Source of the DNA: Chloroflexota bacterium
GTDB lineage: Bacteria > Chloroflexota > Anaerolineae > Anaerolineales > Anaerolineaceae
Length of the DNA: 64,000 nucleotides
Reading direction: 5' to 3'
NCBI GenBank assembly: GCA_004347695.1
Contig: SLTK01000009.1
Location: 194,328-258,327 of the forward strand
Part shown: positions 29,248 through 37,669 of the stretch, one piece after another
Position numbering within the stretch: the stretch's first letter is position 1
Layout: every line of letters begins with the position of its first letter
The notes under the pieces: model-generated
The model's database searches: none
What the model was told of the DNA's origin: nothing
What the model saw: the letters and a program-made list of their open reading frames with translations, nothing else
Program-made: the position numbers and the translations under genes

Positions 29248-29730
29248 TTACGGCTCGATGGGATAACCGGCGTCCCGCCAGGCAGCAAATCCGCCTGAGA
29301 TCGCCTGGACATTAGCGAAACCGTTTTCCTGGAGGATGAGCGCCGCACCGGCGCTCGATTCTTCGGCCGGTCAGGTACAGTAGGTGATGATCCATTGATT
29401 TTTATCCAACTCGGCCATGCGGCTGCGTACCGTGCTGTAGGGGATGTTGAGTGCCCCGGAAACATGACCCGCTGAATAATATTCCGGGTCGCGCACATCC
29501 ACAAAAACCGCCGAACCGTCATCATAGGCTGCTTTGGCGTCCTGCAGTGAAATTCGCGCCACTTCCGGGAATGGAAATTCGGTAGTTGGGACAGGGTTCG
29601 TTTGCGCTGCCGGGATTTCTGGGCCAAGCACCTTGATGGTTTGCCAGATGACGACGCCCAGAATGATTACGGAGCCTAAAATCATCAGAATAATCGGAGT
29701 GGTTGGATTTTTTGGTTGTTTGCGCGCCAT
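29248..29730 (-). CDS. membrane-anchored rhodanese-like selenoprotein (UGA at 29371-29373 read as Sec120), 160 aa
   Basis: The track ORF stops at YCT-TGA. The frame continues PAEESSAGAALILQENGFANVQAISGGFAAWRDAGYPIEP-TAA, completing the rhodanese fold (VDVR, GHVSGALNIP, GGF.AW...G.P). SECIS-like hairpin follows. Confidence 0.85.
29338..29356 (-). promoter_or_regulatory. bacterial SECIS-like hairpin
   Basis: GAGCGCC-GGUGC-GGCGCUC: 7-bp stem, loop beginning GG, loop 21 nt downstream of the UGA. Confidence 0.7.
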
Positions 29731-29967: not shown

Positions 29968-30696
29968 TTACGGCACCCGGCCGATGGCGTAGAAGGTCGG
30001 CACGAAGAGGATGCGCTCACCGTGCTGCCAGGCGGCGGCGTCGATGCGGCGCAGCTCTGCAAGGCGTTCGGCGGGCAGGCTGCCGGCCAAATCGGCTTCC
30101 AGTGCCGCCCATTCCAGATCCCAACCGTCTTCCAACTGCATGGCGCTCCATTCCCCGCCCATGACGCCGCTGGTGACCTGCTGCAGCCCGGCGGCGGTGA
30201 ACAGGGCAGCCAACTTACGACCCCTATGTGGGTCTGCGCCCTGGCGCTCCAGCGCTGATCCCTGAAGCTGACCAATTTCTGCAAGCTCGGCCGGGAAGTC
30301 AATGCGCGCGCCGTAATCGGGTTCTGCCAGCGCCAGGATCATCCCGCCGGGGCGAGTGACGCGCCGCATTTCGGCCAGCACGCGGGCGGCGTTCACCCAC
30401 AGAAGAAAATAATGCGTCAGGCAGGCATCGAAGCTGGCGTCGGCATATGGCAGGGTGTCTGCGTCGGCGCGCACCAATCGGGCGCGCGGGACGGCATGCT
30501 GTGCGATCTGCAAATGCTGCCAATCCCAATCCAGGCCGTGCAGTGTTCCGGCGGGGCAATCTGTCAGCACCGCGCCGGTACCGCAGCCGGGTTCAAGGAC
30601 GCGAGCGGTCCTGGTGAGACCGGCTTTTTCGTAGAGATAGCGGCGAATCTGAGCGGTCCAGCCGGCCTGCTGGGTGTAGCGGGCGTGCCAGTCCAC
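29968..30696 (-). CDS. class I SAM-dependent methyltransferase
   Basis: VLEPGCGTG, LHGLD, ADADTLPYADASFD, LAEMRRVTRPGG. Start uncertain: GTG 30696 chosen just after the upstream stop; the ORF extends to 30750. Confidence 0.88.
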   Translation of the reverse strand: MDWHARYTQQAGWTAQIRRYLYEKAGLTRTARVLEPGCGTGAVLTDCPAGTLHGLDWDWQHLQIAQHAVPRARLVRADADTLPYADASFDACLTHYFLLWVNAARVLAEMRRVTRPGGMILALAEPDYGARIDFPAELAEIGQLQGSALERQGADPHRGRKLAALFTAAGLQQVTSGVMGGEWSAMQLEDGWDLEWAALEADLAGSLPAERLAELRRIDAAAWQHGERILFVPTFYAIGRVP

Positions 30697-30704
30697 TGGC
30701 TGGC

Positions 30705-31877
30705 CTAAACCGGGGCGACTTCGCGCGCCCGCAGCCAGATTTGCTCCCACGGGTCATTTAGTAGATTGCCAAGGATGGCGTTGGAACCCTGGCGCGGCAG
30801 TACATCGCCGTCGGGCTCGACGTACAACCAGGAACGGCCGGCGCCGGCAATGTGTTCGCCAACTTCATTCAGTTCCAGCGCTACCGGATTCAACTGCGAA
30901 TAGGGCACCGGTAGATCCCAGACCAACTCGATATGATGATGAGCGGCTAGCTCGCGGGCGGATTCAAGTTCAAGTTTGAGCGCGCCAGAAGCCTCGCTCA
31001 GGCTCAGCGAAGCGACATTTAGTTCAGCAAGGCGTTCCAGAATTGCGGGAATGTTTGATGCGTTCTGCTCTGTGACAGTAAGATGGACGGTTACGAACAG
31101 GTCCTCGGCCAGAACATCACGCAACGCCTCCCAGGATTGCTCCTCGGCGGGATTCAGCACCAACATCAGGTGATCCAGACCAGCCTGCAACACGGAGTGC
31201 AGGTATCCGGTTTCGGAGAAACGCAGGCCGTCACTGAGCACTCCGGCGACCATGCCAAGCTGTTCGGCGTGGGTGATCAATTCCACCAGGTCGGGGCGCA
31301 GGGTGGGCTCGCCGCCGGTAAAAATCACATGTGGAATGCCGGCGTTCCAGGCTTTGTCCAGGATGGTGATCCATTCTTCAGTGGTCAGGTTGCGGCGGAC
31401 GCGGTCAACCGGGGCGCTGGCAGCGTGCTCCCGGTCAGCGGTCTCGTAAGTCAGCGCGCAGTCCAGACGCAACGGCGCCATCAACTTTTGCGAATGCGGG
31501 GCTGTGCGCTCGAAATCGAGGTAGGTGGCCGGGTCAAGGTCGGGTGTTTCCACCAGCGTGGCTACCCGCTGCGAGAAATCCTGGAAGTCCTGCAATGCAT
31601 CCGAGGCAGGTACGCGGTAGCGTTTGGCAATCGCGGTCGCGACCTCGCCGGGGGGTGTCTGATGCAGTAAATGATAGGCATACTCGGTGGCGGTCTGGTT
31701 GAGGTGCAGCACGGTGGAGGCATTGACGATCAAAATGCCTTCGCCGCCTTCCTCGATGCGCAGGTGCAACCGAAAAGGCACCGGCACGTCCGGCGGCGAC
31801 TGGTAGTGGTGCACGCCAGGAGGAAGAGGCGTCTGTTGAGTGAAAAAGCGGTCCAAATAATTGCGAATTTTATCCAT
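30705..31877 (-). CDS. radical-SAM-fold protein with N-terminal PqqD/RRE-like domain, lacking CxxxCxxC and SPASM cysteines
   Basis: Paralogue of the adjacent gene (GIPHVIFTGGEPTLRPDL, AGLDH, EPDGDVLP..LGN.L.DPWEQIW). LTYETADREHAA replaces LTYRCNNNCAHC. ATG 31877 with GGAGG RBS. Confidence 0.85.
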   Translation of the reverse strand: MDKIRNYLDRFFTQQTPLPPGVHHYQSPPDVPVPFRLHLRIEEGGEGILIVNASTVLHLNQTATEYAYHLLHQTPPGEVATAIAKRYRVPASDALQDFQDFSQRVATLVETPDLDPATYLDFERTAPHSQKLMAPLRLDCALTYETADREHAASAPVDRVRRNLTTEEWITILDKAWNAGIPHVIFTGGEPTLRPDLVELITHAEQLGMVAGVLSDGLRFSETGYLHSVLQAGLDHLMLVLNPAEEQSWEALRDVLAEDLFVTVHLTVTEQNASNIPAILERLAELNVASLSLSEASGALKLELESARELAAHHHIELVWDLPVPYSQLNPVALELNEVGEHIAGAGRSWLYVEPDGDVLPRQGSNAILGNLLNDPWEQIWLRAREVAPV

Positions 31878-31915
31878 TTTTTCTTTCCTCCGTCCCGGGC
31901 GATGAAAATTGGGGG

Positions 31916-33283
31916 CTAAACCGGCGTGACTACGGTCTGTTCGGTTCGCGCCAGCGGGCAACCTCCGCCGCATTCAGCTAATAAGGCGCAGGAATTACAC
32001 TCTACGGGCAGGTTGCGGCGTTCGCGCAGGCTGAGCGCCAGCTCATGGTTCCAGATGCTTTCCCAGGGGTCAGTCAGGATGTTGCCGAGCGCGGTATAGT
32101 AGGACTGGCAGGGCAGCACCGAGCCGTCCGGTTCGATACACATGTTGTAAAGGGCGGCCGAACAACCCTTGACGCCCAGTTCCATTTGCACCGGGTCAAA
32201 ATTGCAGTACTGGGTGGGCGTGTACCAGATCAAGCGCTGAGCGGCGGAATCCGTCTTCTGGCGGGCGATATTCAGCAGCGGCGGCAAGGCGGACTCAGGC
32301 AAGCCGCTACCCACTTTCGCTCCGCGACCGGAATAGATCAGTGCATTCAACCCGACGGTCGGCACCCCTAATTCGGCCAGGAAGTCCAGCGTCTGAGATA
32401 GGAAGGGCGCGTTCGATCGCAGCAGCGTGGTATTGGTCATGACAAACAGGCGGGTTGCCAGCGCATTGCGCACACCGGCAACTGTTTCCTGCCAGGCGCC
32501 GTGCGGCGCGACCATGGCGTCATGGATGGCGGGGTCATGCGACTCGAGGGTGATTTGAACATGATCCAGGCCGGCATCCACCAGTTGCTGGACGAATGCC
32601 GGATCTTTCAGTTTGCGCCCGTTGGTATTGATGCCGGTGATCTGGCCCAGCCCTTCGGCGTGGGCGATCAGCTCGGGCAGGTCCGGCCGCAGGGTAGGCT
32701 CTCCGCCGGTGAACACGATGTGCGGGATGCCGATTTTCCACAGCAGGTCGAGGGTGCGCTTCCAGGCAACGGTATCCATCTCGGGGAAGTTGCGCGGCCG
32801 GGCATTGTAGCAGTGCGCGCAGTTGTTGTTGCAGCGGTAGGTCAGCGCCAGGTCCATGCGGTAGGGCGCGGAAGGGTGCTGCGAGAACGGCGCCAGCACT
32901 TCCAGCTCCAGGTCATGCACCGGGCAGGCGCCGTCAGGCGCGGTAAGTTCATCCAATTGCGGGATGAACTGCGCATAGTCAAGTAACGCTTCCTCGCCGG
33001 GTACTTTGAATTGACGGGTGATGGCGCGCACCGCGGTCGGCTGGGGGACTTTTTCCAGCGCCAGGTAGGCCATCAGGGCGGCGGTGGGGTTGAGGTGAAA
33101 GGCTCGGTTGGCGTTGACCAGCAGCAGCCCATGTCCATCCGCTTCCAGGCGCAAATGGATGCGGGCTTTGCCGTCGCGGTCCTCCCGGCTGTAGTGGTAA
33201 ACCCCGGATTTGGGCAGACCGGGTACTTGGGCACTTCCGCTCATAAGAAAGCGCGGGAACAGATTCGAAATGCGTTTTACCAT
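31916..33283 (-). CDS. radical SAM/SPASM enzyme with N-terminal PqqD/RRE-like domain
   Basis: CNNNCAHC, FTGGEP, NTNG; SPASM KGC...CIEPDGSVLPC...ECNSCALLAECGGGCP. N-terminal LLLVNANRAFHLNPTAA...AITRQFKVP...D is RRE-like. ATG 33283 with AAGGGA RBS; the longer track start is the alternative frame of the CA repeat. Confidence 0.92.
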   Translation of the reverse strand: MVKRISNLFPRFLMSGSAQVPGLPKSGVYHYSREDRDGKARIHLRLEADGHGLLLVNANRAFHLNPTAALMAYLALEKVPQPTAVRAITRQFKVPGEEALLDYAQFIPQLDELTAPDGACPVHDLELEVLAPFSQHPSAPYRMDLALTYRCNNNCAHCYNARPRNFPEMDTVAWKRTLDLLWKIGIPHIVFTGGEPTLRPDLPELIAHAEGLGQITGINTNGRKLKDPAFVQQLVDAGLDHVQITLESHDPAIHDAMVAPHGAWQETVAGVRNALATRLFVMTNTTLLRSNAPFLSQTLDFLAELGVPTVGLNALIYSGRGAKVGSGLPESALPPLLNIARQKTDSAAQRLIWYTPTQYCNFDPVQMELGVKGCSAALYNMCIEPDGSVLPCQSYYTALGNILTDPWESIWNHELALSLRERRNLPVECNSCALLAECGGGCPLARTEQTVVTPV

Positions 33284-33297
33284 TAACAGATTCCCTT

Positions 33298-34998
33298 TTA
33301 TCGTCCGCCGCCAGCGCAGGCGCAGGCACATCCGGCACAGGCGCAAGCACAGGCGCACGAGCGTCCGCCGCCACCTGATCCGCCGGAGCGGGTGTAGGTA
33401 GTCTTGGGTACCGGATTGGTCTTATTCGTGATGGTGTCGGTGAAGCTTGTCAAGTTGCCGACCACGCTGGCCGAGAATTCCTGAGCGCCATTGACCATCG
33501 AAGCGGCAAAATCTGAGCCCGGTAGTTTGGGCAGGTTGATCGAGCCGCCCTGACTGGTTGACGGCATGGAAGGAAGCGAGGCTGCGGCCATGCCGCCGCC
33601 ACCACCACTCGGGCGCATGGCAGGATCAAAGCGCCACCACCAGGTGGGCACGAAGACCGGCTGCGGCCCGAAGGATTGCTGGGTGCGCCCGGACCATTCC
33701 TTGTCGAGCATGGTCCATTCCATTACCTGCTCGTAGGTTTCCGATTTGACCTCAGGAGTATCCGCGGCTGTGACCTGCGCCCATGCTTTTTCCATGATTG
33801 CCGTGTAGTACGCGATCGTTTCTTTGCGGCTGAAACCTTTCATCTTTTCGGAGATCGATTTGACCAGGCCAACCGTCACGGATTGCAGTTCGCGGCGCCG
33901 GGCAGCTTTGTCTTCGGTTTCGAAGGCTTTGCAGAAATCCACCTCATACGGCTGCAGGTTTTCAGGCAGTGGACTGACGACTTCCAGTTTGAGCGGTTCG
34001 CGCGTGACAACAGTAGCTGCGCCTTTTTTGAGCACGCTAAACAGAATCATGCTCATGACTTTATCGAGCGGCTGCTCCATCAGAATGGCTGCTTCGACCG
34101 CGGTCAAACCGCGCTTGATGCCATGGCCTTCGACCGCAATTTTTGGCGGCATGTATTGTAATTTGCGCTTTTCGGCAGCTTTCGCGCCGGCAATGCCGCC
34201 CCACACAATAAAAGCGGTTATCAGGCCGAAGCAAAGGAAGGGGAAGAGGGTATCTATGGAGATGGAACGGGAGTTTGGCGTTTCGGTCGCTACGACCACT
34301 TCGGCCGGCACCAGGGCCATGGGGAAGCTAGCGCCGAATTCATAAATGGTCGATGCATCCGCGTTGTCAGCAGTCCAGGTATACACCACCCGGTTCTGAT
34401 CATCGTAACTGGATGCCGGCTCGTCCGCACCCGGCCAATTGCCGGACGGAGTATGGTAACGCGGCTGCTCCGGTTCAACACCGGGCGGCAGAATGATACT
34501 GAAGGTGTAATTGGTCTTACCGCGTACCAGGCTTGAATCGAACCAACTGGGGGTGAACACCAGACTGGCATACGGTTCGGCTTCTTCCTGTGAACCAGGA
34601 CCCAGTGCATTGCGCACCACGCCCACCTGAACGCGCAGGGTGCCGCTTTGCCCTGGTCGGATCGCATTGGATCCCAGATGGAATTCTACGCCCGGGCTGA
34701 CATATTCGGAGTCAGCAATGCGGTCAACCGGCGCGCCGTCGATGGTCGCGCTAATGCTGTATAACTCATAATCGTAATTGGGCATGCCGACATCGACAAT
34801 GTCGATCGGGTCAGCGTTGGGCTCATTGGCAAACGTGATGGCATAATCCAGACTGAGGGTTCCATCCGAATTAACAAAAACGCTGACATTTTGAACCGGA
34901 ACTTCGAAGGAGTAATTCTGCGCCAGAGCTGTCGACGGGCTAACCAGCAAAATCAGCGCGATAAGCAGCAGGAGACCACCCCGAATCCTGTGCATCAA
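33298..34998 (-). CDS. single-pass membrane protein (DUF2207-like) with C-terminal Cys-Ala repeat tail
   Basis: Signal peptide, beta-rich ectodomain, one TM helix (LFPFLCFGLITAFIVWGGIAGA), cytoplasmic domain ending RSCACACACAGCACACAGGGR. Confidence 0.88.
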   Translation of the reverse strand: MMHRIRGGLLLLIALILLVSPSTALAQNYSFEVPVQNVSVFVNSDGTLSLDYAITFANEPNADPIDIVDVGMPNYDYELYSISATIDGAPVDRIADSEYVSPGVEFHLGSNAIRPGQSGTLRVQVGVVRNALGPGSQEEAEPYASLVFTPSWFDSSLVRGKTNYTFSIILPPGVEPEQPRYHTPSGNWPGADEPASSYDDQNRVVYTWTADNADASTIYEFGASFPMALVPAEVVVATETPNSRSISIDTLFPFLCFGLITAFIVWGGIAGAKAAEKRKLQYMPPKIAVEGHGIKRGLTAVEAAILMEQPLDKVMSMILFSVLKKGAATVVTREPLKLEVVSPLPENLQPYEVDFCKAFETEDKAARRRELQSVTVGLVKSISEKMKGFSRKETIAYYTAIMEKAWAQVTAADTPEVKSETYEQVMEWTMLDKEWSGRTQQSFGPQPVFVPTWWWRFDPAMRPSGGGGGMAAASLPSMPSTSQGGSINLPKLPGSDFAASMVNGAQEFSASVVGNLTSFTDTITNKTNPVPKTTYTRSGGSGGGGRSCACACACAGCACACAGGGR

Positions 34999-35024
34999 GC
35001 ACCTCCCTGATATAAGTTATAAAG

Positions 35025-35387
35025 TTACCACTTGGGTTCTTCGGTTAACTGGTAGGTCGAATGGCACCAGGGGCAGGTGACGACCGGCGCCCCGGCGACC
35101 ATTTTGATATCTTCGGGTTTGAGTGTGCCGCCGCACGCCACACACTTGAGCGTATCCATATTTACGTTGCCGGGAAGGTCGATATTGAGGGTTACGTTGG
35201 TGTCGGCTGCTTTGGCGGAAGACCGGCTTGCCAGGTAGATCATCACCAGCCCGACGCCGCCGATAATGATGCCAAACACAATCCAGCCAACAGAACCCTG
35301 ATCACCGGTGGATCCCCAGACGAGCAGAACACCAAATAAGACCAGGATTGACCCCACGATGTAGGCGATAATTTTTCCAGCGCGCAT
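35025..35387 (-). CDS. two-TM membrane protein with C-terminal Zn ribbon
   Basis: Two hydrophobic helices, then CVAC...CPWC; AGGAG RBS. Confidence 0.82.
   Translation of the reverse strand: MRAGKIIAYIVGSILVLFGVLLVWGSTGDQGSVGWIVFGIIIGGVGLVMIYLASRSSAKAADTNVTLNIDLPGNVNMDTLKCVACGGTLKPEDIKMVAGAPVVTCPWCHSTYQLTEEPKW

Positions 35388-35615: not shown

Positions 35616-37669
<2,054 letters not shown>

Follow-up and report, generated by a model that had tools for sequence, protein, structure and literature searches.

A radical SAM cassette that accompanies membrane proteins with an invariant cysteine-alanine tail, in Chloroflexota and as far as Asgard archaea

The stretch of DNA considered here (the window) covers 64,000 nucleotides of a Chloroflexota bacterium of the family Anaerolineaceae (GenBank assembly GCA_004347695.1, contig SLTK01000009.1, positions 194,328 to 258,327), and harbors on its minus strand, from position 29968 to 35387, a cassette of five tightly packed genes in one orientation, one of which encodes a membrane protein ending in a run of alternating cysteine and alanine residues. 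In the direction of transcription, these are a gene for a 120-aa Zn-ribbon membrane protein (35025..35387), the gene of the protein with the Cys-Ala end, hereafter the tail protein (33298..34998), a gene for a 455-aa radical S-adenosylmethionine (rSAM) enzyme preceded by a RiPP recognition element (RRE, RiPPs being peptides made by the ribosome and then modified after translation) and followed by a SPASM domain (31916..33283), a gene for a 390-aa paralogue of this enzyme deprived of Fe-S ligands (30705..31877), and a gene for a 260-aa class I SAM-dependent methyltransferase (29968..30750). An earlier note, made from the DNA letters and a mechanical list of open reading frames (ORFs), had described five co-oriented and closely spaced genes with these types of domains, and all of them are indeed present. 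The length of 566 aa that it gave for the membrane protein should be corrected to 565 aa, as counted from the likely ATG at 34995 and as found in an identical database entry (P0001), and the starts proposed in the ORF list are too long for the rSAM enzyme (33358) and for its paralogue (31973). The rSAM gene opens at an ATG (33283) located 14 nt beyond the TAA of the tail gene and 8 nt beyond an AAGGGA ribosome-binding site, a 38-nt gap separates it from the paralogue (start at 31877), and the methyltransferase overlaps the 3' end of the paralogue if the GTG at 30750 is its start. A scan of the locus for promoters and terminators gave nothing above chance.

The final 20 residues of the tail protein are SCACACACAGCACACAGGGR, that is, S-(CA)4-G-(CA)3-GGGR, encoded at 33301..33360 and followed by the TAA at 33298-33300; in the family, the last 17-19 residues are essentially constant. 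All of the 120 best homologues, whose overall identity ranges from 41 to 100%, finish in a Cys-Ala tail, and 118 of them terminate exactly in CACACAGCACACAGGGR, with the core (CA)3-G-(CA)3-GGGR. The protein has more than 4,400 homologues, and 863 clusters at 50% identity (E<=1e-3) emerge when 1.84 billion cluster representatives are searched exhaustively and without a profile. CACACAGGGR is the terminus in 108 of the best 150 cluster representatives, the remainder being fragments, frameshifted calls and close variants, such as (CA)5GGGR, (CA)3GGGR, (CA)3G(CA)4GGGR, or tails with V, S or D at a single residue. The residue that alternates with Cys is Ala with almost no exceptions, and all full-length members of the family, retrieved by homology and independently of any pattern, bear a tail of the (Cys-Ala)n...GGGR type down to approximately 31% identity. 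The central Gly was considered as a hairpin turn, an idea weakened by the (CA)5GGGR and (CA)3GGGR members, which do without it.

A degenerate DNA pattern for CACACAGCACACAGG recovers at least 120 loci and 122 tails from Chloroflexota (92 loci), Fermentibacterota, Acidobacteriota, Planctomycetota, Bacillota, Zixiibacteriota, Coatesiibacteriota and Edwardsiibacteriota, as well as from the Asgard phyla Promethearchaeota, Hodarchaeota and Heimdallarchaeota; overall, in what is a small sample, the tail comes from 12 phyla or more, three of which are Asgard lineages. These loci were chosen by their tail, and the invariance of the latter rests on the homology-based sets and on the unconstrained codons that come after the search pattern, which read Gly-Arg-stop in 122 of 122 tails, the Arg using all six of its codons. 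The 122 tails are also 122 distinct DNA versions of one peptide, with saturated synonymous sites. The repeat goes well beyond chance and is therefore no DNA microsatellite: it is maintained as protein sequence, and selection on the tail at this level is extreme.

In an AlphaFold2 model built from a 50-sequence alignment (mean pLDDT 86), the protein that carries this tail consists of a signal-like N-terminus, an extracytoplasmic beta-sandwich (residues 31-226), a transmembrane (TM) helix (248-280), a cytoplasmic winged-helix and helical domain (about 285-457), a disordered linker, a helical hairpin (494-527), a disordered Gly-rich linker, and the Cys-Ala tail. The earlier description of this protein as single-pass holds if its N-terminal hydrophobic stretch is cleaved, and fails otherwise. 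Because the signal-like N-terminus is combined with a single TM helix followed by KAAEKRK, the tail is predicted to lie in the cytoplasm. The beta-sandwich is similar, by model comparison, to the N-domain of M1 aminopeptidases and to ribophorin I. The cytoplasmic domain, modelled separately and with confidence (pTM 0.79), resembles no fold of the PDB (best E 4.4), and its profile has no match among PDB sequences. After the tail, the most conserved stretches are a juxtamembrane Y-x-PP...GIKRGLTAVEAAIL and KMKGFSRKET-YY. A further motif, F-T-x-x-V/I-T-x-x-T-N-P-x-P, sits about 20 residues ahead of the first Cys and is kept in Chloroflexota and several other phyla, with different sequences in Asgard archaea and other subfamilies. 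The pre-tail segment with this motif (residues 494-527, encoded at 33418..33519) forms, in the model, a helical hairpin packed against the cytoplasmic domain (pLDDT 86-93), and could be a recognition element. Neither the tail protein nor the Zn-ribbon protein matches a Pfam or NCBIfam family. With respect to DUF2207 (PF09972), the window protein gives no match at the Pfam gathering score and one of 50 relatives gives a match at E 0.05, two relatives carry DUF2207 as their source name, and a fragment (P0271) of the sister family described below has a precomputed PF09972 match; DUF2207 is likely a distant relation, a family assignment being not established.

There is no small precursor ORF in the cassette, as the earlier note had stated: the intergenic gaps, scanned as 32, 17 and 41 nt, contain no ORF, and both flanks are free of Cys-rich ORFs on the cassette strand. 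The one sequence rich in Cys forms the C-terminus of the 565-aa tail protein, which is not a leader-core precursor of the usual short kind (below about 100 aa). The tail might be a RiPP core in its own right, modified, then cleaved and set free as a small product, with the 545-aa membrane protein as a giant leader or scaffold. The succession of a conserved pre-tail segment, a Gly-rich linker and a Cys core is indeed laid out like a leader and its core, and an Arg that often precedes the core (RS-CACA...) would offer a possible cleavage site. The residue at this position nevertheless varies (R, H, S or G), the cassettes of the different loci share no protease or exporter, and the tail is predicted to be cytoplasmic. 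In addition, the whole scaffold, including its extracytoplasmic domain, is conserved from bacteria to Asgard archaea, which would be unnecessary for a mere leader, and we regard release of the tail as very improbable.

Among the matches listed, 97 tails are followed by 1.5 kb of sequence or more and were used to record the genes that accompany the tail. In 91 of them, the next gene downstream is of the rSAM type (82 with the true rSAM, 9 in which the paralogue comes first), and each of the seven genomes checked for an unlinked tail gene (six of the 97, plus the short locus L108) holds an orthologue of 394-482 bits elsewhere. In one Planctomycetota genome (L022 and L059), one tail gene is unlinked and the rSAM gene stands beside a second one, and two other loci (L075, L088) show a tandem pair of tail genes ahead of a single rSAM gene; one enzyme may serve several tail proteins. 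At the scale of a phylum, the tail protein and the rSAM orthologue occur in the identical 13 genomes of a phylum-wide sample of 151 Chloroflexota genomes, even within one genus (g5), in which two genomes lack both and the other two sampled members have both. The methyltransferase orthologue is present in 13/13 tail-positive and 1/138 tail-negative genomes, an association that holds even when the gene is on a separate contig. Tail proteins that usually occur without the rSAM genes, the outcome by which the earlier note proposed to judge its own hypothesis, are thus not what is found, and the co-occurrence that it suggested scoring extends to the methyltransferase. The single tail-negative carrier of the latter (G009:C206:6052-6774, 169 bits) has neither tail protein nor rSAM in a genome that is 93% complete and split into 350 contigs, which is either an assembly gap or a remnant.

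The remaining members of the cassette are less constant. Among 77 judgeable loci, 69 have a Zn-ribbon homologue immediately upstream of the tail gene, the Asgard loci lack this homologue, and the order outside Chloroflexota is tail protein, rSAM enzyme and methyltransferase, with no paralogue. In a Heimdallarchaeota locus that lacks the bacterial Zn-ribbon gene (L049:4087-6072), the cassette includes a 661-aa coiled-coil protein. When all ORFs of the 120 loci are clustered, the only other conserved neighbors are ligA, in 19 loci, and alternative-frame artefacts. In the window, ligA (NAD-dependent DNA ligase, 35645-37669 on the plus strand) lies divergently upstream of the cassette, and its adjacency in the 19 related loci is synteny by descent within Anaerolineae, with no functional link. 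Several cultured Anaerolineae carry the cassette, for instance Ornatilinea apprima P3M-1, Bellilinea caldifistulae and Leptolinea tardivitalis.

The enzyme encoded downstream of the tail gene matches the Pfam models Radical_SAM (PF04055, E 2e-25) and SPASM (PF13186, E 1.4e-9). Its CX3CX2C motif is formed by C151, C155 and C158 (32810-32833), and its SPASM region contains C360, C374, C382, C392, C429, C432, C438 and C442 (31958-32206), among which the pattern C374-x12-G-x4-C392 followed by C429-x2-C432-x5-C438-x3-C442 is conserved in 84 orthologues; an additional conserved cysteine, C120, is located in the linker between the RRE and the barrel. The N-terminal domains of the enzyme and of its paralogue score below the Pfam gathering threshold for PqqD (19.4 and 22.2 bits, respectively, vs 23.4; E 1.3e-3 and 1.8e-4), and a profile of 20 such domains, taken from both paralogues, matches the lasso-peptide RRE TfuB1 (6jx3_B) at E 4.2e-5 and TbiB1 at 0.3. 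The RRE that the earlier note had assigned to both proteins is thereby supported, with modest scores. Together, the CX3CX2C motif, the full SPASM motif and the RRE-like N-domain mark this enzyme, as judged from its sequence, as an rSAM protein of the peptide-modifying kind. The nearest solved structures are PqqE (6c8v, 1.2e-18) and SkfB (6efn, 1.7e-14), and the enzyme belongs to no curated family, as it misses the NCBIfam equivalog cut-offs of NirJ2 (122 bits vs 500), PqqE (115 vs 381) and MftC (86 vs 265); no equivalog cut-off is reached by any of the five cassette proteins.

The paralogue has a single Cys in total, compared with 12 in the rSAM enzyme, in agreement with its earlier description as devoid of Fe-S ligands. 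It still matches Radical_SAM (E 1.2e-8), and keeps the RRE-like N-domain (R-HLR...G-G...HLN-TA), the SAM-motif region FTGGEPTLR and a C-terminal beta-hairpin (YVEPDGDVLP-QG). These pseudo-enzymes form a single clade (55 rows, SH-aLRT 100), restricted to Chloroflexota loci, and therefore derive from a single duplication. Most simply, the paralogue would be a non-catalytic partner that holds the substrate. In five of the 12 other genomes having one (G092, G110, G013, G119 and G074), the match to the paralogue contains one or two in-frame stops (TAG/TAA), which may indicate decay of the pseudo-enzyme gene or an alignment that overruns the end of the gene.

The methyltransferase matches Methyltransf_11 in Pfam (E 5.5e-17), and its best NCBIfam score, with the DVU_1556 family, is 54 bits vs a cut-off of 155. 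Its nearest PDB chains are generic (34-38 bits) and include LahSB (34 bits), a lanthipeptide C-terminal carboxyl methyltransferase; this similarity can serve as a lead only, and the invariant C-terminal Arg of the tail would fit a role in carboxyl-methylation or in docking. The Zn-ribbon protein has two N-terminal hydrophobic (TM) helices and a C-terminal ribbon, CVAC...CPWC, predicted to be cytoplasmic.

A second version of the system bears directly on the relationship between tail and enzyme. In addition to a standard Cys-Ala cassette, genome G022 contains a diverged, sister cassette (L131:983-5794, contig C252), whose tail protein (581 aa) is a 30% identical homologue of the same architecture that ends in approximately eleven ACHS, ACHD or ACVHD units (...ACHSACHSACVHDACHSACVS-D/K-F). 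Downstream of this scaffold are its own PqqD-rSAM-SPASM enzyme, 36% identical to that of the window, then a 390-aa coiled-coil protein (L131:1477-2649) and a 167-aa Zn-ribbon protein with two TM helices, and no methyltransferase. The same four-gene order recurs on an independent contig (L132:6001-10981). The sister family is rarer (21 clusters), and its complete members, with an overall identity of 41-50%, again have almost the same tail. That the Zn-ribbon proteins of the two cassettes are homologous was considered and set aside (BLASTP E 0.014 being too weak), and a shared architecture is claimed instead. One scaffold thus bears at least two distinct invariant Cys repeats, each with its own enzyme, and two such pairs would be difficult to account for if the enzyme acted on anything other than the tail, which is probably its target.

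This scaffold also appears to be remotely related to the TIGR04222 membrane proteins, which are matched over the TM and juxtamembrane region by 10 of 50 relatives of the tail protein (weakly, best E 1e-5) and by the sister protein (22.8 bits, 5.9e-5; cut-off 43 bits), the window protein itself giving no match. TIGR04222 proteins have unstructured Ser/Gly-rich C-terminal regions with interspersed Cys, and subsets of them were proposed as bona fide protein substrates of MNIO (DUF692) enzymes (PMC12452194, 2025). By analogy, the cassette looks like the radical-SAM counterpart of this idea. None of the five cassette proteins matches the MNIO (DUF692) families, the neighboring enzyme being a radical SAM protein.

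The substrate of the rSAM enzyme and the methyltransferase could instead be a different one, for instance a lipid, a cofactor or some unlinked peptide, and both enzymes could be recruited to the membrane by the tail and Zn-ribbon proteins. Non-peptide enzymes (NirJ2, AhbC/D, BlsE, and the tetraether-lipid synthases GDGT-MAS/Tes) are among the best NCBIfam and PDB similarities of the rSAM enzyme, and the modest RRE evidence points the same way. Recruitment alone, however, leaves two facts without an explanation, namely that the partner is most conserved in its Cys-repeat tail, and that a sister scaffold, whose Cys repeat is different, comes with a diverged rSAM enzyme of its own, and it does not fit with the conservation of an RRE-like domain in both paralogues. 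This explanation is accordingly judged quite improbable.

How does the cassette compare with known systems? It would work like an RRE-dependent rSAM/SPASM maturase, but without the short, cleaved precursor that defines that family. The maturases SkfB, AlbA, StsB (with its peptide StsA), CteB and PapB show the same order of RRE, radical SAM and SPASM/twitch domains and act on Cys-rich cores. Precursors of the sactipeptide and ranthipeptide maturases are 30-60-aa peptides that are cleaved and exported, whereas the window has no short precursor, protease or exporter, and its rSAM enzyme falls far from the sactipeptide models (StsB, 66 bits vs 625; SkfB, 63 vs 300). QhpD, also a radical SAM/SPASM enzyme, forms Cys thioethers within a subunit, QhpC, that stays in the functional protein. 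QhpC, in contrast, is small and soluble, belongs to a periplasmic dehydrogenase and bears Cys-to-Asp/Glu links, and its gene context is unrelated to the window cassette. In Haft's ACGX system (TIGR04340, rSAM_ACGX), four-residue Ala-Cys-Gly-X repeats are associated with a dedicated rSAM/SPASM enzyme and share the register of the sister ACHS/ACHD units; these repeats reside in small peptides, unlike the membrane protein of the sister cassette, and the TIGR04340 cut-off (400 bits) is reached neither by the sister enzyme (97 bits) nor by that of the window, for which this family is outside the best 25 (<53 bits).

The closest likenesses come from recent work, the nearest precedent being CrpC/CrpA. 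In Methanococcus voltae, CrpC, an enzyme with RRE, radical SAM and SPASM domains, makes ranthionine cross-links, demonstrated by mass spectrometry, on the neighboring full-size Cys-repeat protein CrpA (PMC13692751, 2026). Several CrpA motifs (ACAGM, CAVD, PCAGD) contain Cys-Ala, as does the window tail. CrpA differs by its 17-residue repeats, which extend over much of the protein with no membrane segment described, from the short invariant tail of a membrane protein seen here, and the window cassette further includes a methyltransferase, a pseudo-enzyme and a Zn-ribbon protein. That the window rSAM enzyme belongs to the CrpC family (TIGR04463, rSAM_vs_C_rich) was considered and rejected, in view of a score of 18.1 bits vs a cut-off of 525. 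The TIGR04222/MNIO pairs similarly combine a membrane protein, an unstructured Gly-rich C-terminal tail with Cys residues, and an adjacent RiPP-type Cys-modifying enzyme. Their tails are variable and predicted to be periplasmic, and a third of the genomes lack the MNIO, in contrast to the radical SAM/SPASM enzyme, the invariant, predicted cytoplasmic tail and the strict association of the system studied here; both are known from sequence. Neither CrpC/CrpA, TIGR04222/MNIO, StsB/StsA nor QhpD/QhpC has this scaffold, tail or gene set. Keyword searches of the searchable library returned no paper describing the cassette, and a search by the tail peptide string returned DNA primers only. The earlier statement that no characterized pathway has this architecture therefore stands for an architecture based on a membrane-protein tail, and should be tempered by the close analogues published as CrpC/CrpA (PMC13692751) and TIGR04222/MNIO (PMC12452194).

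Taken together, the cassette is probably a dedicated protein-modification system, the substrate of which would be the cytoplasmic C-terminal tail of the 565-aa membrane protein. No alternative substrate presents itself, there being no small ORF and no other conserved gene except ligA. According to the scheme that we infer, the protein would insert into the membrane with its beta-sandwich outside and its winged-helix/helical domain inside, and its disordered end, (Cys-Ala)4-Gly-(Cys-Ala)3-Gly3-Arg, would be presented by the Gly-rich linker to the RRE-radical SAM/SPASM enzyme, whose RRE may dock on the conserved pre-tail segment. Chemistry based on the 5'-deoxyadenosyl radical and two auxiliary clusters could then convert several Cys thiols into intramolecular thioethers, most plausibly S-C-alpha (sactionine) or ranthionine-type links onto adjacent Ala or Gly. 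StsB provides a precedent, as it joins Cys2, Cys4 and Cys6 of the CxCxC core of StsA, which acts as a donor block in a hairpin, to Gly alpha-carbons (PMC10288494), and the sister tail has C-x-x-D units that resemble known ranthionine motifs. By analogy with these systems, a thioether is a tentative choice for the product bond, to which we give somewhat less than an even chance. In Chloroflexota, the cysteine-less paralogue would hold the substrate as a non-catalytic, RRE-bearing partner, and the methyltransferase might act after the rSAM enzyme, on a leftover thiol or on the carboxylate of the invariant C-terminal Arg. The Zn-ribbon protein would be a structural partner at the membrane.

Several points weigh against this reading. 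The rSAM enzyme is, in sequence, as close to PqqE and to NirJ/Ahb as to thioether synthases, and the bond type is for this reason a guess. The PqqD scores lie below the gathering threshold in both paralogues, and those of the RRE are modest. RREs usually bind a free beta-strand, unlike the pre-tail motif, which is predicted to be helical, is docked on a domain in the model, and is not conserved in all subfamilies. The C-beta of Ala is a poor site for hydrogen abstraction, which limits the ranthionine option, and runs of Cys-X-Cys are classic metal sites. Finally, the methyltransferase is missing from the sister cassette and the pseudo-enzyme from loci outside Chloroflexota, and therefore neither is essential to the core reaction.

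The spacing of the cysteines suggests a different explanation, in which the unmodified tail would be a metal or Fe-S site, either metallothionein-like or the cluster-carrying tail of a membrane sensor, and the rSAM enzyme, linked to it for some other reason, could be an acceptor or a donor of clusters, or have its target in another molecule at the membrane. Seven Cys in Cys-X-Cys spacing would form a typical thiolate site, the sister tail is still more ligand-like with a His set beside each Cys (ACHS/ACVHD), the tail is disordered in the AlphaFold2 model, and published analogues whose tails or peptides are modified at Cys (bufferins, TIGR04222 proteins) have a connection with the handling of copper (PMC12452194). 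A metal site has nevertheless no need for inter-Cys Ala and Gly, nor for a GGGR end, that are invariant across phyla, and the strict one-to-one co-occurrence with an RRE-bearing, peptide-type rSAM enzyme and a methyltransferase, in a cassette with no conserved metal transporter or regulator, also speaks against it. We consider an unmodified metal site unlikely and favor modification of the tail, because Ala almost always alternates with Cys and pure metal-binding Cys-X-Cys motifs require no such Ala. The modified tail could itself be a metal site, the cross-link and metal readings being compatible.

One further gene of the window lies directly downstream of the methyltransferase and encodes a rhodanese-like, membrane-anchored protein (29248-29730, minus strand). 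Its ORF halts at a TGA in the active-site loop (YCT-TGA-PAEESSA), and reading this codon as selenocysteine adds 40 residues up to a TAA; the gene is a possible selenoprotein candidate. Its position beside the cassette is not conserved in other loci.

To our knowledge, RRE-bearing radical SAM/SPASM enzymes are known almost solely as makers of small secreted peptides, and the action of radical SAM/SPASM enzymes on full-size proteins is only starting to be shown (CrpC, 2026). An invariant Cys-Ala tail is always encoded with its own peptide-modifying rSAM enzyme and a methyltransferase, in Chloroflexota as in Asgard archaea, and this strict pairing suggests that a whole membrane protein is chemically modified on its tail, in a way not described so far. 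The cassette would be a widespread case, with hundreds of clusters at 50% identity, of an integral membrane protein whose tail serves as the substrate. In its broadest form, on which we are evenly divided, this would be a phylum-spanning class of protein modification in which receptor-like membrane proteins of one scaffold superfamily have their (Cys-Ala)n-GGGR or (ACHS/ACVHD)n tails converted, at the cytoplasmic face, into a thioether ladder or a sulfur-rich metal-binding group by co-evolved RRE-rSAM/SPASM enzymes, the product of the main family being methylated, in Asgard archaea as well. The invariant 17-residue motif is easily followed by mass spectrometry, and the existence of cultured carriers makes the question directly testable. 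If true, a new post-translational modification would be defined, the dead paralogue would exemplify a pseudo-enzyme retained as a substrate-binding partner, and the many uncharacterized DUF2207/TIGR04222-like membrane proteins with odd Gly/Cys-rich tails would receive a first functional handle.

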